64,000 nucleotides of DNA, taken from the IMG/VR virus record IMGVR_UViG_3300030447_000342; one strand, written 5' to 3'. The notes below the pieces were generated by a model. It ran no database searches. It worked only from the letters and a program-made list of their open reading frames with translations, and was not told the origin of the DNA. Origin of the DNA: a virus. This document shows positions 9,895 to 61,319 of this stretch, in pieces. Position numbers and translations under genes: made by a program. Positions within the stretch are counted from its first letter, which is position 1, and the number at the start of each line of letters is the position of its first letter.

Positions 9895-10845
9895 TTAGAT
9901 TGAAAACGCCAGCTTCCAACGCTGATAATCTTCCATATAATTTTTTTCTATGCGGTTCTGCTTGTGCTCCAACTTGATTCTTCCGTTGAGCACATAAGTT
10001 CTGTCAGCGACAAAGTCTGTTGCTGCTTCTGAGAAATCGACCGGAATACCGGCTCGTTCTCTATCGTACATTCTGTAGAATAACCCTGACATCCATACTC
10101 TGTAGAAACTAAGTTGTTGCTGGGTGAGTCCATCTTCAATGGCTTTTGCTGATTTCTTAGATAAAATTGAACGAAGTGTCGCGGTCTTTTTTACTGCGCG
10201 AATACCACGCATCAAAGTATCGCCAGAAACTCTATCTCGTGTAATCGTTCGAGAATAATTTGGATTCTTGTAGCAGAAGCTATTGAGTTCTGCTGCTTTA
10301 TGGAACGCTGGCAGTGCTTCACGATAAAGCGGGACGTGCGTATCTTGATAGACAATTTCCATGTTGGCGAAGTCAATATCAGACGCTCTTACGAGAAGTG
10401 TATCATCTTCTTTGATGCCACCAAAAGCCATCCAATAATAACAACGGTAGGTGACATCGATTGTCTCTTCGCTCTCTTTGTCAAAGACCTCATCAAGAAT
10501 ACGTTGAAGATGGAGTGGACTTGAGACCATCTGCCGCCTAACTTTTGCTAACCCCGCTGCCTCAATATTAAGCATCCCATCGCAAGCGTCTGGAACCTTC
10601 ATGGCAATACACCATTTTACATACTCTTTTAATATCGTGAGAGACATCCACTGGCTTCTGGAGCGCAGTGCAAGTATCTCATCGATAGCTGGCTGCAGTT
10701 CTTCTCTGTCTCTTGTACAGAGGTCTGCATTCCACGAAGTTTCATACGGTTCAAACGCTTCGAAAACAGTTGTGGCAACGTTAGCCGTGTTGATACTCTT
10801 GGTATAGTCCTTAACGAATCTTGACTTTAACTCCGCATTGTACAT
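9895..10845 (-). CDS. Hypothetical protein
   Basis: 316-aa ORF in the early operon. No motif recognised. Confidence 0.4.
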   Translation of the reverse strand: MYNAELKSRFVKDYTKSINTANVATTVFEAFEPYETSWNADLCTRDREELQPAIDEILALRSRSQWMSLTILKEYVKWCIAMKVPDACDGMLNIEAAGLAKVRRQMVSSPLHLQRILDEVFDKESEETIDVTYRCYYWMAFGGIKEDDTLLVRASDIDFANMEIVYQDTHVPLYREALPAFHKAAELNSFCYKNPNYSRTITRDRVSGDTLMRGIRAVKKTATLRSILSKKSAKAIEDGLTQQQLSFYRVWMSGLFYRMYDRERAGIPVDFSEAATDFVADRTYVLNGRIKLEHKQNRIEKNYMEDYQRWKLAFSI

Positions 10846-10872
10846 AGCGAGCCTCCTACTTAGTATGTAGCA

Positions 10873-11379
10873 TTATGCTGGTACAACAGCGTTTAGGGCT
10901 GCAGCTTTCTTCCACACAGCAAGCAGCGCTTCGATGTCCAGATAGGCGATTGCACCCGTCGCCAGCAAGTTTGCTTCGGCAACTTGCTTCATGTGCTCCT
11001 CTGACAACGTAGTGATGTACTGCCCGAGGCGTTCTTTAGACATACGCTCTGGGTTTTCGCAAAGAACCATGCTGTCTCTGCGAAGCCCACTATCTGCTGC
11101 TTTGATGATAACGTGTGTAGGTTGGTTCGTCTTTTTGAGCGAACTGGTAAGTGGGAGTGCGATGATGTTGGGGCTGTATGCATTCCCCATGTTGTTCTGG
11201 AAGACGACGCCCGGACGCCAACCACTCTGTTCGCTGCCACTGCCACCGAACTTCATCAAATACACTTCACCAATCTGTGGAACCCGTTCTTTATGATTCT
11301 GAAAACCCAATGCGCTAAACCCCTTAAATACAATTATGTTGATGGTTGGAGTATAGCACGCCCAATATGGCATAGTCAA
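10873..11379 (-). CDS. PemK/MazF-family toxin-like endoribonuclease with a C-terminal extension
   Basis: IGEVYLMKFGGSGSEQSGWRPGVVFQNN..NIIALPLTSS..PTHVII..RDSMVLCENPERMSKERL fits the PemK/MazF consensus (GDIvwvdfdpt.GsEq.g.RPalVvsn..vivvPiTs..lv.qirtidk.RL). Confidence 0.7.
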   Translation of the reverse strand: MTMPYWACYTPTINIIVFKGFSALGFQNHKERVPQIGEVYLMKFGGSGSEQSGWRPGVVFQNNMGNAYSPNIIALPLTSSLKKTNQPTHVIIKAADSGLRRDSMVLCENPERMSKERLGQYITTLSEEHMKQVAEANLLATGAIAYLDIEALLAVWKKAAALNAVVPA

Positions 11380-21013: not shown

Positions 21014-21514
21014 TTATGATGCGAAGTATCCAGACGGCATTTCAACAAATGGATATGCCGGGGTGGGAATCAGGCACAGACCCGTTTCTGTGCAAGCATT
21101 TGGTTGATTCATGTCAGTTGCTTGTTTGAGGTCGAAGATGATGACTCCCTCATCTGCAAAGCGAACGCCCGGTGCCTTTAACGGAACATTCATCTCGACA
21201 CCAATACCGGCTTTTACAAGTGCCGTCAGCGCACGATTTCCAACCGGAATCATCCTCTTCTTTGGCTTTCCGTCTTTCATAGAATCCGACGTAAAGAACT
21301 TCATTGCGTTCGGTGTTTCTTTGGCACAAGGCTGCAATGCAATTTGTGTTTTGTCTCTGCTGATGAACAGCCGCACAAATGGCGGATAGCCAATCTCAGA
21401 AGCCGTTGCAAGGTTAAAGGAGATGCGGTTCTTCAGGATTCGAACCTCTGCAATACTGAATGTACGAGGGACGCCAACCACATCAAAGTTGTCTAAGATA
21501 CTCATTGTTTCCAT
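21014..21514 (-). CDS. Hypothetical protein, frame-shifted by one nucleotide relative to the recombinase 3' end
   Basis: 166-aa ORF whose start overlaps the recombinase stop. N-terminus SILDNFDVVGVPR resembles the recombinase C-terminus SDILDGFFVIKPRK. Confidence 0.4.
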   Translation of the reverse strand: METMSILDNFDVVGVPRTFSIAEVRILKNRISFNLATASEIGYPPFVRLFISRDKTQIALQPCAKETPNAMKFFTSDSMKDGKPKKRMIPVGNRALTALVKAGIGVEMNVPLKAPGVRFADEGVIIFDLKQATDMNQPNACTETGLCLIPTPAYPFVEMPSGYFAS

Positions 21515-22451
21515 CCTTTCGAGGTTTAATTACAAAAAAGCCATCCAATATCCGAGGAACATCAGATGCAGACAAATCTGCCACCTCATCAACTGATGGA
21601 ACCGGGACAACATTTTCGCCTTTTAGAATCTGTTGTACTTCAAGCCAAAGTGCTCTCGGAATAATTGCCTTGTGGTAACCTTGGATAAAAAACTGATTGG
21701 CACGCCCGTCATTCCGAATAGAGCGATGCGAAAAGATATCTACGGTAACGGTTTTCTGCATCAAAACGTCACCAGAATATTTCTCATTTGTCAAAATTGT
21801 TTTTACCGTAGAGTATGTCCATTGACCGCCCCGTGGAGATGGGATACCTTGCTGGTTTAGGATGTAACAGATTTCAGGAATCGTTCTGTCATCGTAGAAC
21901 ATTTGATAAATCAGCCGCACGACATTCGCTTCGGGCTCGTAAATCTCCAGCAGTCGTTTATCTCTGGTGTACCCGTAGAGGTCTGCGAGTTTTGGAAGCC
22001 CCTTCTCGAATCTTTTCTGGAACCCCCATTTCACGCTCTCAGACTTCGCTTCCGATTCACCTTGTGCAATAGCAGCCATGACGACCATCAGAAGCTCGCC
22101 GGTCTGCGTCAAGGTATTGATTGCAATATCCTCGAAGTAAACAGCAACCGGCTTATCCAGTGCCTTGAGCATACGCACAGTGGCAACACAATCAACGACA
22201 TTGCGTGCGAACCTTGCAATGTTCTTCACGATAATCATATTGATTTTACCCGCTTTACAATCATCAATCATCCGTAAGAAATCCGTGCGTTTCTTTACGG
22301 AAGTCCCGGAAATCCCTTCATCGGCGTAGATGTCATAAAGTCGCCAGCCCGGATGCTTCGACACATATTCTTTGTAATACTGGCACTGCAACTCATAACT
22401 TGCGAGCTGGTCTTTACTGTCCGTACTGACCCTGCAATACGGCGCAACCAT
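21483..22451 (-). CDS. Serine recombinase: resolvase-type catalytic domain plus recombinase domain. Candidate integrase, but short.
   Basis: YCRVSTDSKDQ catalytic Ser motif. GGQWTYSTVKTILTNEKYSGD recombinase-domain motif. Probable start MVAPYCRV at 22451. Confidence 0.75.
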   Translation of the reverse strand: MVAPYCRVSTDSKDQLASYELQCQYYKEYVSKHPGWRLYDIYADEGISGTSVKKRTDFLRMIDDCKAGKINMIIVKNIARFARNVVDCVATVRMLKALDKPVAVYFEDIAINTLTQTGELLMVVMAAIAQGESEAKSESVKWGFQKRFEKGLPKLADLYGYTRDKRLLEIYEPEANVVRLIYQMFYDDRTIPEICYILNQQGIPSPRGGQWTYSTVKTILTNEKYSGDVLMQKTVTVDIFSHRSIRNDGRANQFFIQGYHKAIIPRALWLEVQQILKGENVVPVPSVDEVADLSASDVPRILDGFFVIKPRKDGNNEYLRQL

Positions 22452-22572
22452 CAATGGGTCTTCTTCGCTGTGCTCAGTAGTCTTTTTAATCGAAGCGGGA
22501 ATACACTGGACTTGTGCGCTATGCTCATAAGCATCGCGTATCTCATTTTGCTTATTTGTTTCCAAACTTGTG

Positions 22573-22612
22573 TCACCCCTTTCGAATATGTATGTTAGTA
22601 ATATAGGGTGAC
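22573..22612. promoter_or_regulatory. Imperfect inverted repeat upstream of the serine recombinase; candidate att or operator site
   Basis: GTCACCC and GGGTGAC 7-bp inverted arms flanking an AT-rich ATATGTATGTTAGTAATATA core. Confidence 0.25.
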
Positions 22613-22738
22613 CTATCGTGATGCGGGTGAGGATTTGCACCCCACATGACCTAACAGAGCATCGGTCTCCATCGCTTTTCTGGGCGACATCCGAACTGTA
22701 ATTTGTAAGCGTCTACCTATTCCGCCACCGCATCATTA

Positions 22739-43932: not shown

Positions 43933-45069
43933 TTACCGCAGGTCGTCCTTCATCATGCGGATTACATCCACATTCATTTTCTTGTTGATGTAAGCTACAA
44001 TTGCGTCGATGGTCTCTTTTTCGACCATACGATAATAGCTATGCAGACCATACATTACCTGTACATCATTCCGCTCCCAAGCGACACCATTGTTCTTATC
44101 TGTGATGTAATTGTACAGCATTGACTGGAACTGCTTTTTCTTTTTATGACCGACCGTAATCTCGTTGTCCTTATTCAGCATAACGCCAAGATTCCAGTTG
44201 CGCCCCGCTGATGAACCATACCGAGTCTTGCTTGCATTGATTGTGAATGGGGCACCAAAACTGCTCAATGTACTTACTACCAGCTCTTCAACAGAGCGAA
44301 CATCAAAATCATACTTGGATGAAATAATGAAGTCATCCGCATATCTGGTATAAATGAAGCTCTGTTTTTCAAAATTACGGAGCGTATTCGACAGTTTGAA
44401 ATCAACCGGAATCATCATTACGTTTGTGATGAGCGGTGAAATTGGGGTGCCCTGCGGTAGCCCACCATTTAAGAACGCTAACGACATAGCTGTCCGCAAT
44501 GCTGCCTCGCCCTGTGGCTCTTTTACAATCTCACTAAAAGGAAAAACCATCGAGAACATTGAGATGGCATAATCCAATGTTGTGCTGCCAAAAAAGTCGT
44601 GCAGGTCAAGCTTTGCGAACCATTTGCTGCTGTTCTTCTGGTGACGCTTAACCGCATCGACTGTACTCCGCTTCTTTACATAAGCAAACGCGGCAGTATG
44701 ATAGAGTGCATGGAAATCATCCTCGAAAATCGTTTTGAGTCTTCTCAAGGCGTCCATCAGCTCTGCCTTTGGCGCATCGATTCTACGAAGACCACCAGAT
44801 TTCTTTGGGATGTAAAAGGTCTCATACAACTCGCTCCGTTCCTTTGCACGAAGCTCTGCTGTATCGTTATTAAATCGCACGAGTTTTCCGATTAAAGCTT
44901 CAACACCAATCTTGCTGGAAAAATGTTCACTGACATTTTCGACCTCGTATGTTCTTGTGTTTGCAATATTGGCATTGACAACCGGAGGTGTCTGATAGTT
45001 TTGAAACAGGTACTCTTCCAGTGTCATCTGATGATAAATCGGTGACTGCCTAACAGTGATATAGACCAT
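43933..45069 (-). CDS. Reverse transcriptase. Retron/group-II-like RT motifs, no maturase or endonuclease domains, and no DGR-type SQ motif.
   Basis: FYIPKKSGGLRRIDAP (RT motifs 1-2). AYVKKRSTVDAVKRH (region 2a, NAxxH-like). LDLHDFFGS (motif A). LPQGTPISPLITN (motif B', QGxxxSP). YTRYADDFIISS (motif C, YADD). FTINASKTRYG and NLGVML (motifs 6-7). AAGGAGG RBS. Confidence 0.8.
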   Translation of the reverse strand: MVYITVRQSPIYHQMTLEEYLFQNYQTPPVVNANIANTRTYEVENVSEHFSSKIGVEALIGKLVRFNNDTAELRAKERSELYETFYIPKKSGGLRRIDAPKAELMDALRRLKTIFEDDFHALYHTAAFAYVKKRSTVDAVKRHQKNSSKWFAKLDLHDFFGSTTLDYAISMFSMVFPFSEIVKEPQGEAALRTAMSLAFLNGGLPQGTPISPLITNVMMIPVDFKLSNTLRNFEKQSFIYTRYADDFIISSKYDFDVRSVEELVVSTLSSFGAPFTINASKTRYGSSAGRNWNLGVMLNKDNEITVGHKKKKQFQSMLYNYITDKNNGVAWERNDVQVMYGLHSYYRMVEKETIDAIVAYINKKMNVDVIRMMKDDLR

Positions 45070-58099: not shown

Positions 58100-58649
58100 T
58101 TTGAAATGCCCCTTTCACAGATTTTTTGGTGATAACAAAGTTTATCACTCAAGAAAGCCGCTGAAAGATTTCTCAGTCAGCGGCTCTATCAATGATAAAC
58201 TCAAGGACACGGCGGCGGCTCTGCACTCGGCTCATGGGGCATACCCTGCCCATGCAACTATTGCAGTATCGAACGCCGCTCATATCATTTCTAATACTCG
58301 CGTCGATTGAGTGAAGTTCTGCTTATTCACAATACTCAACCAAATCCGACTTTCATATCTATATGCCCTCATTTTCGGCTCCTCGGAGCACAACACCCTT
58401 GGGTGGAAAACTCGGACGATACTACTAACCATCAGAGGTCTTTTTCGTATAGCCATCAGTTATGCAAGCCGCACTTAGGTTCATAGGCACAAACCTCCGG
58501 GGATTTTCACTATCTCGTACCATGAGCCTAACTCTCATGCACCGGCGACGCCTTTGATAGCAAAGGTACTCACATTGACACTCACTCAATGGTGTGTTGG
58601 CTTGCCATACCCGAAAGTGGCGGACATCTCCGCTTGTATTTCGTGGCTT

Positions 58650-58835
58650 GCCGTGCGGGGTCTTGCCCTGCACCCTTAACCGCAAGGGGTGTACCCTGTG
58701 GCGGCGGGGCGGCGGGGTCTTGCCCTGCACCCTTAACCGCAAGGGGTGTACCCTGTGGCGGCGGGGCGGCGGGGTCTTGCCCTGCACCCTTAACCGCAAG
58801 GGGTGTACCCTGTGGCGGCGGGGCGGCGGGGTCTT
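58650..58835. repeat. Three perfect tandem copies (plus a partial fourth) of a 57-bp GC-rich unit
   Basis: Unit GGGGTCTTGCCCTGCACCCTTAACCGCAAGGGGTGTACCCTGTGGCGGCGGGGCGGC repeated head-to-tail. The core AACCGCAAGGGGTGTACCCTGT recurs once more at 60040-60061. Confidence 0.8.
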
Positions 58836-58941
58836 GCCCCCCCCTTGCGCTTGCCGTGTGCCGTCCTTGCGGTTGCGTGTGCGGTCTGTCCAAAAAGAAA
58901 GGGCGGGGGCGTTGTGCCCCCGCCTTGTGCGGTCTGCGTAT

Positions 58942-59895
58942 TCAGTTGTTCGGGGTCAAGCCAAGGGCAAGCGCCTTTTTCTGGACTTGTTCAACGGTCT
59001 TTGCAATCGCCCTTTGCGTCACTCCAAGATAGGTTGCAATTGCCTTGTACCCCTTGCCCTGCATACGCAGTCTCAACACTTGCGCTTGACGGTCGGTCAA
59101 GTCCAGTCGTGCAACGGTCGTTTCGTAGTCCTCTACGGTCTGCCGGTCGGCGGTGTAGTTGCCGTCGCAGTTGTACCCGCCAAGGTCGGCGTACTTGTGC
59201 AAGCGGTAGTAAATGGTTTCAAGCCCGTTTTCGCTGTCCTCTATGTAAGTATAGCCGTTGCGGGGGTCGGTCTGCGTTGCGCGGCTGTCCTGCACAGCTT
59301 GACGCACAGCGCGGTAAACTTCCTGTATCGGGGTTGTTGTTTCGTCACGGTATGCGCGGCTGTCCTCTGTGCGGATATAGACACGGCGGGAAAGTCGGCG
59401 GGTTGTGTACGGCGTGTCAAGCCAAGGGGCGGCGGGGTCGGCGTGTTCGGCGGCTTGTTCGAGAATGGCAAGGGCGGCGGCGTTCACAAGGTCGATGCCG
59501 TCGGAAAGGGTTTCACCCACAAGGGCGGCAACGGCTTTTTCTGCGTCCTTGTCCACGGTTTCGGTTGTCAAGTCACCGTCGGCGTTGTACGCCGTGCGGG
59601 TTGCCTTGTTCGTTGCCGTGCGCAAGTTGTCCAGCGTTGCAAGGTCGGCGGCTATGCCCCTTTTCAGTTGGACTAATGCGGGGTTGTATCCGTTGTCGGA
59701 TACGGTTTCACGGTCGGCGGCGGTCTTGCGTTGCGGGTCAATACACTTGTTCAAAACAGAGTATGCAACGGCGGTTGCAAGGGCGGTCAATTCCTGCGTG
59801 CTGTCCTTGCCGCTTGCAAGGGCGGTTTCATAGTTGCGCTTGACTTGTTCAAAGTCGGGGCGGCTTTTCGCCGTGTTGGTGGTGTTGGTGTTCAT
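58942..59895 (-). CDS. GC-rich-island protein with a C-terminal sigma-70 region-4/LuxR-like HTH
   Basis: DLTDRQAQVLRLRMQGKGYKAIATYLGVTQRAIAKTVEQVQKK. Probable start MNTNTTN with an AAGGAAA RBS. ~65% GC versus ~47% in flanking DNA. Confidence 0.5.
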   Translation of the reverse strand: MNTNTTNTAKSRPDFEQVKRNYETALASGKDSTQELTALATAVAYSVLNKCIDPQRKTAADRETVSDNGYNPALVQLKRGIAADLATLDNLRTATNKATRTAYNADGDLTTETVDKDAEKAVAALVGETLSDGIDLVNAAALAILEQAAEHADPAAPWLDTPYTTRRLSRRVYIRTEDSRAYRDETTTPIQEVYRAVRQAVQDSRATQTDPRNGYTYIEDSENGLETIYYRLHKYADLGGYNCDGNYTADRQTVEDYETTVARLDLTDRQAQVLRLRMQGKGYKAIATYLGVTQRAIAKTVEQVQKKALALGLTPNN

Positions 59896-60328
59896 GTTTT
59901 CGTTTCCTTTCTGCCGTGTCGGTCGGGCGTGTTGGTGGTGTTGGTGGTGTAGGGGTTGCCCGCCGTGGTTGTCCGGCATGGATAGACTACCACAACGGCG
60001 GCACAATGTCAACACAATTTTTTTGCATACGCAGACAACCGCAAGGGGTGTACCCTGTTCGCCTTGCTTTTTCCGCTGTCCGTGTCGGTCTGTCCGCCGT
60101 TTCTACTTGCCCTTTCTGTGCTATGGCAAGTAGGGGGGGCGGTTATGGTATTTTTGCCCCCTGTCCTTGCCGCACACAGATGTAGTCGGTTCATCTAACT
60201 GACACGCCCCATTTTTAACTCAGTCCATCAACCCCTTGTGTTTCAAGGCTTTTCTGTCCAGAAGAATATTATTGGTTAAGCCTTTTGCGTGGTTGCTTTT
60301 ATCACAGGATTCAACTTTCCAAAAAAGA

Positions 60329-60358
60329 AAAAGGCTTAACTACGCAGCCTTTTATTTA
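60329..60358. terminator. Bidirectional intrinsic terminator
   Basis: AAAAGGCT taactacgc AGCCTTTT followed by ATTT. A- and T-runs on both sides. Confidence 0.55.
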
Positions 60359-60491: not shown

Positions 60492-61319
60492 ATGGCTCAG
60501 ATTATCCAGTTAGACTTCAACAAGACGAATAGTGCCTCCGGTGTCATCGACATCGCAACCATCCAGCAGAGCTGCCGTAAGCTCAAGGCTGGTCTCATCG
60601 CTCCTGCCACCGAGGAGGTGCACACTGACCTTGCTGTCGAGCACGCTGCTGAGCCCATCAAGAGTATGGATGACATCATCCGCATCTCCCAGTTCCTCAT
60701 TGGACAGAAGCGTTTCAGAGACAATATGCTGTTCATCGTTGGCATTAACTTTGGACTTCGTATCAGCGACCTTCGCTCTCTGCGCTTCATCCACATCATC
60801 AATGATGACTGCACTTTTCGTGACCGGTTCCCCATTCTGGAAAAGAAGACCCGAAACACACGCAAGCATCAGCGCAACCGCTACATCACCATTAACACCG
60901 CAGTTGTCGAAGCTGTCACCCTGTACCTTGAGAACACTCCAAACGTTCGTCTCAGTGACTATATGTTCCGCAGCCAGTCCAATAATGGAGTGAACGAGAA
61001 TAAGCCCATCAGCAAACAAGCCGTTGACTCAATGCTCAAAGGCATTGCTCGTGACCTTGGACTTGGTAACCGTATGGCAACTCACTCATTGCGTAAGACC
61101 TTTGCTTATCATCAGATGGTGATGAGTGGTAATGACCCTCGCAAACTCCTGCTCCTCCAGAAGATGTTCGGTCACTCGACCGCTGCTCAGACTCTGGACT
61201 ACATCGGTATCACCAGCGAAGAAATTGATGAAGCATACCGGAGCCTCAATCTCGGTAGCATCAACCACAACTATCTGGTCGATAGCGACATTGGAGAAAG
61301 CGAGTCTCTGATGGCATAA
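60492..61319 (+). CDS. Tyrosine site-specific recombinase (phage integrase/Xer-like, small)
   Basis: Box I GLRISD. Box II HSLRKTFA. LQKMFGHSTAAQTLDYI with the catalytic Tyr. Confidence 0.75.
   Translation: MAQIIQLDFNKTNSASGVIDIATIQQSCRKLKAGLIAPATEEVHTDLAVEHAAEPIKSMDDIIRISQFLIGQKRFRDNMLFIVGINFGLRISDLRSLRFIHIINDDCTFRDRFPILEKKTRNTRKHQRNRYITINTAVVEAVTLYLENTPNVRLSDYMFRSQSNNGVNENKPISKQAVDSMLKGIARDLGLGNRMATHSLRKTFAYHQMVMSGNDPRKLLLLQKMFGHSTAAQTLDYIGITSEEIDEAYRSLNLGSINHNYLVDSDIGESESLMA

Follow-up and report, generated by a model that had tools for sequence, protein, structure and literature searches.

A helix-turn-helix protein gene and a tandem array of its putative cognate sites form a conserved early-gene module in a family of uncultured gut phages

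The 64-kb stretch of viral DNA analyzed here (IMG/VR virus record IMGVR_UViG_3300030447_000342, referred to as the window) carries a gene for a 317-amino-acid protein with a C-terminal helix-turn-helix (HTH) domain and, beyond the terminator of that gene, a tandem array of perfect 57-bp repeats. An earlier, sequence-only reading had taken these elements for a foreign island inserted between direct repeats. We refer to the gene, its promoter, its terminator, and the associated repeats as the module; it is read on the minus strand, and all coordinates are those of the plus strand. In the order in which they are met along the minus strand, its parts are as follows.

60037..60058, minus strand: promoter-proximal copy of the repeat core, ACAGGGTACACCCCTTGCGGTT, about 24 nt upstream of the -35 box
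59983..60024, minus strand: sigma-A/sigma-70-type promoter, with -35 TTGACA at 60011-60006, a 17-nt spacer, and -10 TAGTCT at 59988-59983
59896..59975, minus strand: CA-repeat 5' leader of 80 nt, CACCACCAACACCACCAACAC..., with the ribosome-binding site (RBS) GAAAGGAAAC, read from the sequence
58942..59895, minus strand: gene for the 317-amino-acid protein, stop included (open reading frame [ORF] 59895..58945), with a predicted alpha/beta domain (residues 11-250) and the HTH (residues 251-310)
58895..58930, minus strand: intrinsic terminator after the HTH gene, with a 9-bp stem of GC pairs only and then CTTTCTTTTT, from a terminator scan
58865..58882, no strand assigned: inverted partial copy of the constant block of the repeat, minus-strand AACCGCAAGG, between the terminator and the array, from an inverted-repeat search
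58655..58839, minus strand: head-to-tail array of 3.2 perfect 57-bp units, from Tandem Repeats Finder (TRF) and a repeat search

The sequence-only reading had recognized the perfect 57-bp units, which it placed at 58650-58835, and both repeat searches bore it out, giving a period of 57, 3.2 copies, and 100% matches over 58655-58839 (TRF score, 370). Read on the minus strand, each unit consists of a variable half, ACAGGGTACACCCC, a constant block, TTGCGGTTA, an array-specific block, AGGGTGCAGGG, and a C-rich spacer, and each contains one copy of a 22-nt core, AACCGCAAGGGGTGTACCCTGT. The fourth copy of this core, upstream of the gene, has the same orientation as those in the array; its direct orientation had thus been read correctly, but it lies 3 nt to the left of the position first given for it (60040-60061). 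When a 15-mer from the core was sought with up to three mismatches, the window gave 8 matches against 1.2 expected, and the exact matches were all at the module locus. The array-specific half was present in the array alone in a search of the window, and the core was absent elsewhere in the window and elsewhere in the contigs of the same phages. Two other identities for the repeats were considered and rejected: a G-quadruplex on the G-rich plus strand (by inspection, the loops between G runs are 16 to 27 nt long and the low-GC relatives have no such runs) and an array resembling clustered regularly interspaced short palindromic repeats, because the units are contiguous, without spacers.

More than 25 related loci have homologous arrays in the same place, immediately past the terminator, with periods of 57 to 88 bp and 1.9 to 6.2 assembled copies. 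Within a genome, the identity between units is almost always 100%, and between lineages, the unit sequence diverges. In loci with a full-length homologue of the protein, the copies of the array-unit motif are all on the strand of the gene and none are on the opposite strand. An inverted partial copy equivalent to that at 58865..58882, and matching the local variant of the core, was found in L029, L044, L064, and L066.

The sequence-only reading had a single protein gene lying between the repeats, which is right, with the array preceding it, which is not, since the gene, being on the minus strand, has the array on its downstream side, past the terminator. The His-rich N terminus that had been ascribed to the protein is the CA-repeat leader read in frame; this leader is untranslated and lies upstream of a conserved RBS and start codon (ATG; MNTNTT...). 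That ATG, which follows the RBS and opens the MNTN... reading, is also where homologues begin; their leaders are CA rich too, but the frame is not conserved. The coding strand is T poor (15% T) in all relatives, the one compositional feature universal across them, and this feature and the CA leader may reflect selection for an unstructured, highly translated mRNA. The -10 element of the promoter is TGn extended, and an A-tract lies upstream at 60016-60024; in the window itself the -10 is too weak for a simple promoter scan, and the promoter was read from the sequence. The arrangement TTGACA-17-TAtacT with the A-tract is conserved in 24 of 24 aligned upstream regions, and in all lineages the upstream core copy keeps its position, 24 to 38 nt before the -35 box. 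The terminator is also kept in relatives, together with the TTTTGGAYA motif that follows it. We observed that TTTTGGA(C/T)A recurs after terminator T runs in the window, at 58895-58900 after the HTH gene and at 60300-60312 in the loop of an upstream hairpin.

In about 45 loci, the longest substring common to the upstream region (-400..-60) and the downstream region (stop..+450) was the core, at 16 to 24 nt, compared with 7 to 12 nt in a reverse-complement control. The shared element is bipartite, with a lineage-variable half followed by a constant CC(C)TTTGCGGT. We took the recognition helix of the HTH as the 12 residues after YLGV and the site as the 16-nt variable half and found that differences between helices correlated with differences between the variable halves of the array units (r = 0.87; partial r = 0.85 with N-terminal divergence controlled; permutation p ~2e-4). 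The helix correlated with the upstream site as well (r = 0.74; partial r = 0.73; p ~2e-4 in a partial Mantel test), whereas N-terminal divergence correlated with that site at r = 0.27 only. Because the upstream site sits beyond the N-terminal coding region, which evolves discordantly, this second correlation answers the objection that helix and array are merely adjacent and inherited together. Many of the loci are close relatives, so that the p values are optimistic and the discordant cases carry the argument. Compared with the window, L005 shows 5% N-terminal divergence, changes at 9 of the 12 helix residues, and a new core; L050 shows 30% N-terminal divergence with an identical helix and an identical core; and L055 shows 53% N-terminal divergence, with 3 of the 12 helix residues changed and a core that is nearly identical.

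At least eight types of helix and site were found. The helix TQRAIAKT pairs with ACAGGGTACACCCC (type A, with GGGTACACCCC), and TYQAVQNT pairs with GGGGGTTGCCCCC (type B, in which the array unit is GGGGGTTGCCCCCTTGCGG); more broadly, T(Y/P/K)QAVQN(T/A) pairs with GGGGGTTGC(C/A)CC, both DVANVKRT and DPNNVGRT pair with GGGTGACCCCCC, and SNNAIVKT pairs with CAGGGTGTACCCC, with further types beyond those listed here. From this co-variation we infer that the protein would bind the array and the upstream sites. In principle, the co-variation could instead reflect gene conversion between site copies together with hitch-hiking; the discordant N-terminal region argues against simple linkage. The secondary suggestion of the sequence-only reading, that the repeats are a binding array or iterons maintained by selection, is supported by this co-variation across lineages.

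Profile searches recognized the C-terminal 50 to 60 residues alone. Residues 251 to 310 form an HTH of the sigma-70 region 4 or LuxR/GerE type, the first of which had been suspected from the sequence of the gene between the repeats: Sigma70_r4_2 matched 59 of 66 family members, GerE matched 57 of 66, and a PDB profile search returned NarL, RhlR, and GerE chains (E = 3e-6 to 1e-3). On this evidence, the DNA-binding domain is assigned to the sigma-4/LuxR superfamily, and the protein as a whole may or may not be a sigma factor. Residues 1 to 250 had no match in Pfam, NCBIfam, or the PDB, including receiver and autoinducer-binding sensor domains. AlphaFold with 66 diverse sequences gave a predicted local distance difference test score (pLDDT) of 85; this prediction replaced one from 16 close homologues (pLDDT, 56), which was not used. 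In the model, the N-terminal domain (residues 11 to 250) is a confidently predicted alpha/beta domain, strongly conserved and with no detectable relative. The best whole-length Foldseek matches in the PDB and BFVD were sigma factors (SigH, SigB, sigmaE, phage SigF, and extracytoplasmic function [ECF] sigmas), and they were weak (E = 0.01 to 0.05; probability, 0.6 to 0.94). Sigma70_r2 matched 0 of the 66 members, and an hhalign alignment with a single Escherichia coli RpoE sequence covered the HTH only. By our own reading of the alignment, a DLVQ...(23 aa)...WL pattern recalls ECF regions 2.2 to 2.3. Searches with the protein or the family turned up neither a winged-helix Rep fold nor a Pfam family of Rep proteins, and no ParBc domain was found in the 66 members, 4 of which gave RepB partition-family matches at E >= 0.015 only.

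More than 971 close homologues of the protein were counted, and at 50% identity the family falls into 431 clusters, all metagenomic and none named; some clusters at 90% contain thousands of member sequences. Megablast with the region and tblastn with the protein found nothing in 50,697 cultured phage records, and PADLOC found nothing for the protein or its neighbors. The equivalent junction of the cultured Enterocloster phage CB457P2 encodes nothing homologous to the protein (hhalign probability, 0.3), and the only repeats there are AT rich, with no array like this one. In literature searches on RAGATH-4, RAGATH-16, and RAGATH-36 and on YonO-type gut phages with ribozymes, no account of the module came up.

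The features that surround the module in the window, from right to left, are the following.

60492-61319, plus strand: tyrosine recombinase gene (275 amino acids), divergently transcribed
60094..60195, minus strand: conserved noncoding elements upstream of the core site, namely, a hairpin at 60094-60142, AAAATACCATAACC at 60141-60154, and GATGAACCGACTAC at 60176-60195
58566-58495, minus strand: RAGATH-16, above the gathering score
58319-58189, minus strand: RAGATH-4, above the gathering score
57284-57219, minus strand: weak match to a type III hammerhead ribozyme, from an Rfam scan
56893-56829, minus strand: near-threshold match to twister-P1 (62.2 versus 67.2 bits)
55907-55751, minus strand: RAGATH-36, above the gathering score

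The next gene downstream of the array, also on the minus strand and placed between RAGATH-4 and the hammerhead match, encodes a 249-amino-acid product (P249). On the other side, in the divergent direction, lies the gene for P405, a P-loop protein with a YonV_C domain and a classical (not deviant) Walker A motif. PDB sequence searches with P405 and P249 gave nothing. The order P405, optional recombinase gene (int), divergent HTH gene, terminator, array, P249 was found in 57 IMG/VR loci and in several contigs of metagenome-assembled genomes. Among loci anchored on P249, all 22 with enough flanking sequence carried the HTH gene, and the other 11 were cut at the array; no empty site was seen among the 57 protein-anchored or the 22 P249-anchored loci.

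The sequence-only reading had likened the direct repeats to target or att duplications around an inserted element, which would make the region a recently acquired mobile island moved by the adjacent tyrosine recombinase. Three observations lend themselves to it: the raised GC content, the 22-nt direct repeats at both ends, and the recombinase gene, which does lie just beyond. Over 58640-60190 the GC fraction reaches 0.596, and in the array it reaches 0.724; the rest of the window stands at 0.46, and stretches of equal size there gave a mean of 0.459 (standard deviation, 0.018; maximum, 0.515). The enrichment over about 1.55 kb is therefore real, although at 58 to 60% it falls short of the ~65% first reported. 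It is not a foreign signature, since GC at third codon positions is the same in the HTH gene and in P249 (0.68 in both) and similar in int (0.62), and in low-GC relatives, the GC content of the gene equals that of its flanks (0.37 to 0.40). At codon positions 1 and 2, the HTH gene stands at 0.60 and 0.46, compared with ~0.50 and ~0.35 in its neighbors, so that the excess reflects amino acid composition and the remainder lies in the noncoding repeats. The far core copy occupies a conserved place before the promoter of the gene itself, and about 13 related loci have no recombinase gene, their divergent neighbor being a gene for a P-loop ATPase. Comparison with relatives, which had been proposed as a check, showed the module in all of those examined. 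We conclude that it is a fixed part of the early genes in a family of uncultured gut phages rather than an inserted foreign element, and we regard the mobile island as extremely improbable.

The recombinase itself is present or absent by lineage at the same junction (L046, L053, L055, L059, L060, L062, L064, L066 to L068, and L071). By eye, its catalytic residues appear intact, and its distribution is that of an optional cassette lying between P405 and the HTH gene. Mosaicism marks the HTH gene, in that its N- and C-terminal halves and the neighboring genes have different nearest relatives (L020, L054, L005, and L050); in L020, for example, the HTH protein is 99% identical and P405 81% identical, and P0027 matches the window in the C-terminal half only. 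This mosaicism indicates frequent recombination within the module.

An assembly artifact had been named as a possible source of the repeats. The array is real, having been seen in more than 25 independent assemblies, but its copy number is another matter. Of the 57 protein-anchored contigs, 23 end within ~250 nt past the gene, 11 of 33 P249-anchored contigs begin just before P249, two contigs (114 and 116 kb) both start and finish inside the array, and one scaffold has a gap of Ns within it. Because related contigs end in the array and one is gapped there, the three copies assembled here appear to be a minimum imposed by the assembler. Regardless of the unit sequence, the arrays as assembled group at lengths of ~111 to 130, 170 to 188, and 345 to 362 nt, which may be related to k-mer size. 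The array is thus a systematic breakpoint in short-read assemblies of these phages, at which about one-third of the related contigs end, and this bears on completeness calls and circularity tests.

The window is the early, replication, and counterdefense arm of an SPbeta-like temperate phage of gut Firmicutes. Leftward from 60 kb, every gene is encoded by the minus strand, and cumulative GC skew changes direction at 60 to 62 kb; the module sits at a divergent promoter region and at the GC skew switch, with a YonO-like RNA polymerase gene in the divergent operon; in relatives without int, both divergent operons have consensus sigma-A promoters. The replication and recombination genes encode a DnaE-type polymerase, DnaB, DnaG, ERF, a PD-(D/E)XK nuclease, and a DNA ligase. 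Between 14500 and 54000, we noted a large counterdefense-like load, made up of 13 to 16 tRNA genes, tRNA repair and RNA functions (RtcB, RNA ligase, CCA-adding enzyme, Thg1-like protein, and RlaP), NAD salvage and repair functions (NAMPT, a phosphoribosyltransferase, NAD synthase, an isochorismatase family protein that is possibly a nicotinamidase, NADAR, and a macro domain), a ThiF family protein, and a reverse transcriptase (43933-45069). A gene for an MrpR-like protein (with the N-terminal core-binding domain of the SPbeta master repressor) adjoins a PemK/MazF-type toxin gene, and a serine recombinase gene lies further on (regions 9895-11379 and 21483-22640); the MrpR-like protein and the serine recombinase are likely to be the lysogeny functions of the phage.

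Several structured elements flank the module. The conserved elements at 60094-60195, which may or may not belong to it, and a long hairpin at 60275-60340 (GTTAAGCCTTTT.../...AAAAGGCTTAAC) are retained down to 41% protein identity (L003, L046, L062, L064, and L066), with changes in the hairpin arms that keep pairing. These elements have no Rfam match; they may represent a new RNA or serve as a site for recombination or replication. On the other side, a nested hairpin (58610-58646, minus-strand CGAAAUACAAGCGGAGAUGUCCGCCACUUUCG) lies between the array and RAGATH-16, and it may be a 5' extension of that RNA. It shows a compensatory change from CGAAA/TTTCG to CGGAA/TTCCG (L029, L039, and L048), which suggests that transcription probably starts in or before the array. 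A promoter scan found no sigma-70-like promoter between the terminator and RAGATH-16, and the early arm may be expressed as one long transcript processed by ribozymes.

Taken together, these observations make it probable, in our view, that the module encodes a DNA-binding protein that regulates its own synthesis and has an array of its sites where the ~58-kb early arm begins, and that it acts either as a transcriptional gate or as an iteron-like origin. In this model, host RNA polymerase would transcribe the monocistronic HTH gene from its near-consensus sigma-A promoter, as read from the sequence, yielding the 317-amino-acid protein with its conserved N-terminal domain and C-terminal sigma-4/LuxR-type HTH. 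As the co-variation suggests, the protein would bind a bipartite site of ~24 bp made up of the variable half and CC(C)TTTGCGGT. One such site, 24 to 38 nt before the -35 box of the gene itself, would feed back on synthesis of the protein, and the homogenized array, immediately after the terminator and at the entrance to the codirectional early and replication arm, would assemble a multiprotein complex at the head of the arm. Specificity has diversified and is shuffled by recombination between related phages, as is expected of an element that needs to distinguish self from coinfecting relatives.

What that complex does is less certain. We tentatively suppose, at somewhat below an even chance, that it gates transcription into the arm, either as an array of activator sites or promoters or as an array that titrates the protein or blocks the road. 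Transcription is favored because of the type of DNA-binding domain, the immediate-early promoter, and the place of the array between a terminator and an arm without a promoter of its own; maintenance functions are favored because of the perfect tandem layout, the presence of sites on both sides of the gene, and the absence of sites elsewhere. Several points weigh against the model. The core occurs at one locus only, which is unusual for a transcription or sigma factor, and perfect arrays with periods of 57 to 88 bp are met more often in centromeres and iteron clusters than in promoters and operators. The upstream site lies at a variable distance (24 to 38 nt) from the -35 box, which speaks against an activator that contacts RNA polymerase in a phase-dependent manner. 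The N-terminal fold is without a match, and no partner (RNA polymerase, helicase, or ATPase) can be named for it.

Among the functions that could be served by the same layout, an iteron-type origin or copy control element is a real though lesser possibility: the protein would be the initiator, the upstream site and the array would be sets of iterons, and the array would titrate or handcuff. The phage encodes a DnaE-type polymerase, DnaB, and DnaG but no recognizable initiator; the module lies at the GC skew minimum and strand switch, with its own sites on both sides of the gene, and directly repeated sites co-vary with the helix of the adjacent protein. Co-variation of specificity combined with a conserved second domain is also what is seen in lambdoid O/ori pairs. 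However, the skew switch is not independent evidence, because it coincides with the change in gene orientation; neither the array nor the single site has an AT-rich unwinding element or a cluster of DnaA boxes beside it (GC is 0.49 to 0.69 around the array, and DnaA-box matches are isolated, have one mismatch, and occur only in two relatives); searches with the protein gave no winged-helix Rep fold and no Rep Pfam family; the period is 57 to 88 bp instead of the usual iteron spacing of 17 to 22 bp; and the replication genes are ~52 kb away. Within the transcriptional reading, a sub-case that we consider unlikely has the protein as a divergent sigma-like factor whose HTH would read the variable half as a -35-like element and whose N-terminal domain would read the constant half, each unit being a promoter and the array a multicopy promoter for the early arm. 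The weak sigma factor matches from Foldseek would fit, as would the parallel between a bipartite site and a protein with a variable helix and a conserved N-terminal domain, the uniform downstream orientation of the units, and the lack of a visible sigma-A promoter for an arm whose ribozymes could process one long transcript. Set against these are the failure of Sigma70_r2 to match any family member, the restriction of the RpoE alignment to the HTH, the difference between upstream and array copies in the putative -10 half, and the absence of further sites in 64 kb. We think it similarly improbable that the family is a new one of phage transcription specificity factors, sigma-like and working with the host or a YonO-type polymerase, in which the array would be a multicopy promoter for one very long early transcript cut by twister, hammerhead, and RAGATH elements and helix-site pairs would diversify fast. 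For YonO-type single-chain RNA polymerases, promoter recognition is an open question (PMC5467207).

Other roles seem less probable still. A centromere-like segregation site, with the protein coating the array and an NTPase segregating a plasmid-form prophage, strikes us as quite unlikely, even though the module has the architecture of sopC, with an HTH protein gene and, immediately after it, near-identical tandem repeats that each contain a short inverted repeat, and the nearest cultured relatives of the RNA polymerase and DnaE genes include the plasmid-type prophages Clostridium phage c-st and Clostridioides difficile pCD1602_4. ParA, ParM, and TubZ were not found among the ORFs scanned in the 64-kb window, the remainder of the genome not having been seen; the P-loop of P405 has a classical Walker A motif, and there is no ParB domain; the phage has serine and tyrosine recombinases and an MrpR-like protein; and relatives lie on contigs of 187 to 303 kb, suggesting integration. 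There is little probability, too, in a pac region at which the protein marks the start of headful packaging, with sites on both sides of its gene. In SPbeta, the genome opens between yonR and yonP, beside the yonO operon (bioRxiv 10.1101/2021.11.22.469490). The GenBank records of cultured and uncultured relatives (OP172753-OP172757, PQ571309, and MT835481) begin 0.4 to 1.4 kb upstream of the YonO-like polymerase gene, such that genomes of this phage group may share a conserved opening point at the junction, and many contigs end at the array. Those ends, however, fall inside repeats, with partial units at both ends of one and the same contig, as assembly breaks give; the promoter is an early-type host promoter, no terminase gene adjoins, a protein of 317 amino acids with a C-terminal HTH is unlike small terminases, and there is no homologue in SPbeta or any cultured phage. 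Least persuasive of these is a role for the repeats as RNA, that is, as a tandem structured noncoding RNA like the RAGATH RNAs nearby, to which we give very little credence. It would suit the next 2.8 kb on the same strand, which holds RAGATH-16, RAGATH-4, RAGATH-36, and ribozyme-like matches, and a 346-nt stretch folds better than shuffled sequences (z = -2.6). Yet no shared fold emerged from RNAalifold with 11 diverse units, only 6 base pairs in one helix (-2.3 kcal/mol; covariation term, -0.28; one compensatory pair), and the small GC hairpin of the variable half is missing in L061 and L063. In addition, the array follows a strong terminator, one core copy is upstream of the promoter, where no sense transcript is expected, and no Rfam match over the array was found at E <= 1.

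Several known systems resemble the module in layout. The F plasmid sopC site, the centromere of a type I partition system, has 12 repeats of 43 bp. The module resembles sopB-sopC in having an HTH protein gene, here probably autoregulated, followed directly by near-identical head-to-tail repeats with a short inverted repeat as the site; unlike sopB-sopC, it has no ParB/SopB domain and no ParA partner among the ORFs scanned, its units are 57 to 88 bp, its HTH is C terminal and of the sigma-4/LuxR type, and it has an extra copy of the site before the promoter. It also resembles P1 repA with incC/oriR and incA, and F repE with ori2 and incC, in that the gene is flanked by putative sites of its own protein and occurs in a temperate phage; in those systems, the upstream site lies at the promoter and the downstream array titrates the protein. 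It differs from P1 repA in lacking a winged-helix Rep fold and an adjacent AT-rich or DnaA-box region, in having one upstream site that does not overlap the core promoter, and in its period of 57 to 88 bp rather than ~19 to 22 bp. The long tandem array of a viral protein with a smaller site ~1 kb away recalls EBNA1-oriP of Epstein-Barr virus, an analogy of layout only, as that virus is eukaryotic and the protein fold is unrelated.

Similar partial likenesses link the protein to regulators and packaging proteins. With ECF and other sigma-70 factors, including phage-encoded ones, it shares a C-terminal region 4 HTH, weak whole-length resemblance, a site upstream of its own gene, and diversified specificity, but region 2 is not detectable by sequence and the sites are confined to one locus. 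Its DNA-binding domain matches the LuxR/GerE/NarL-type and KorA (TrfB) regulators, whereas its N-terminal 250 residues match no receiver, autoinducer-binding, or KorA dimerization domain and its targets are tandem direct repeats. Like SPP1 G1P with pacL and pacR, it has sites on both sides of, or within, its own gene, and in SPbeta the pac region adjoins the yonO operon; unlike G1P, it has an early-type promoter, is a large protein with a C-terminal HTH, and has no terminase gene adjacent.

Because the folds and partners that define the sopB and repA families were sought, the partners among the ORFs scanned in the window, and not found, the protein is not a member of either. It belongs to an undescribed, abundant family of a kind that is known, that of DNA-binding proteins with a cognate tandem site array. 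The family is large and confined to uncultured gut phages and is without a name, a cultured representative, or a Pfam family over most of its length. Its diversified helices and sites make the module a natural set of orthogonal protein-DNA specificity pairs. Whichever function holds, the module marks the main control point of widespread SPbeta-like gut phages.

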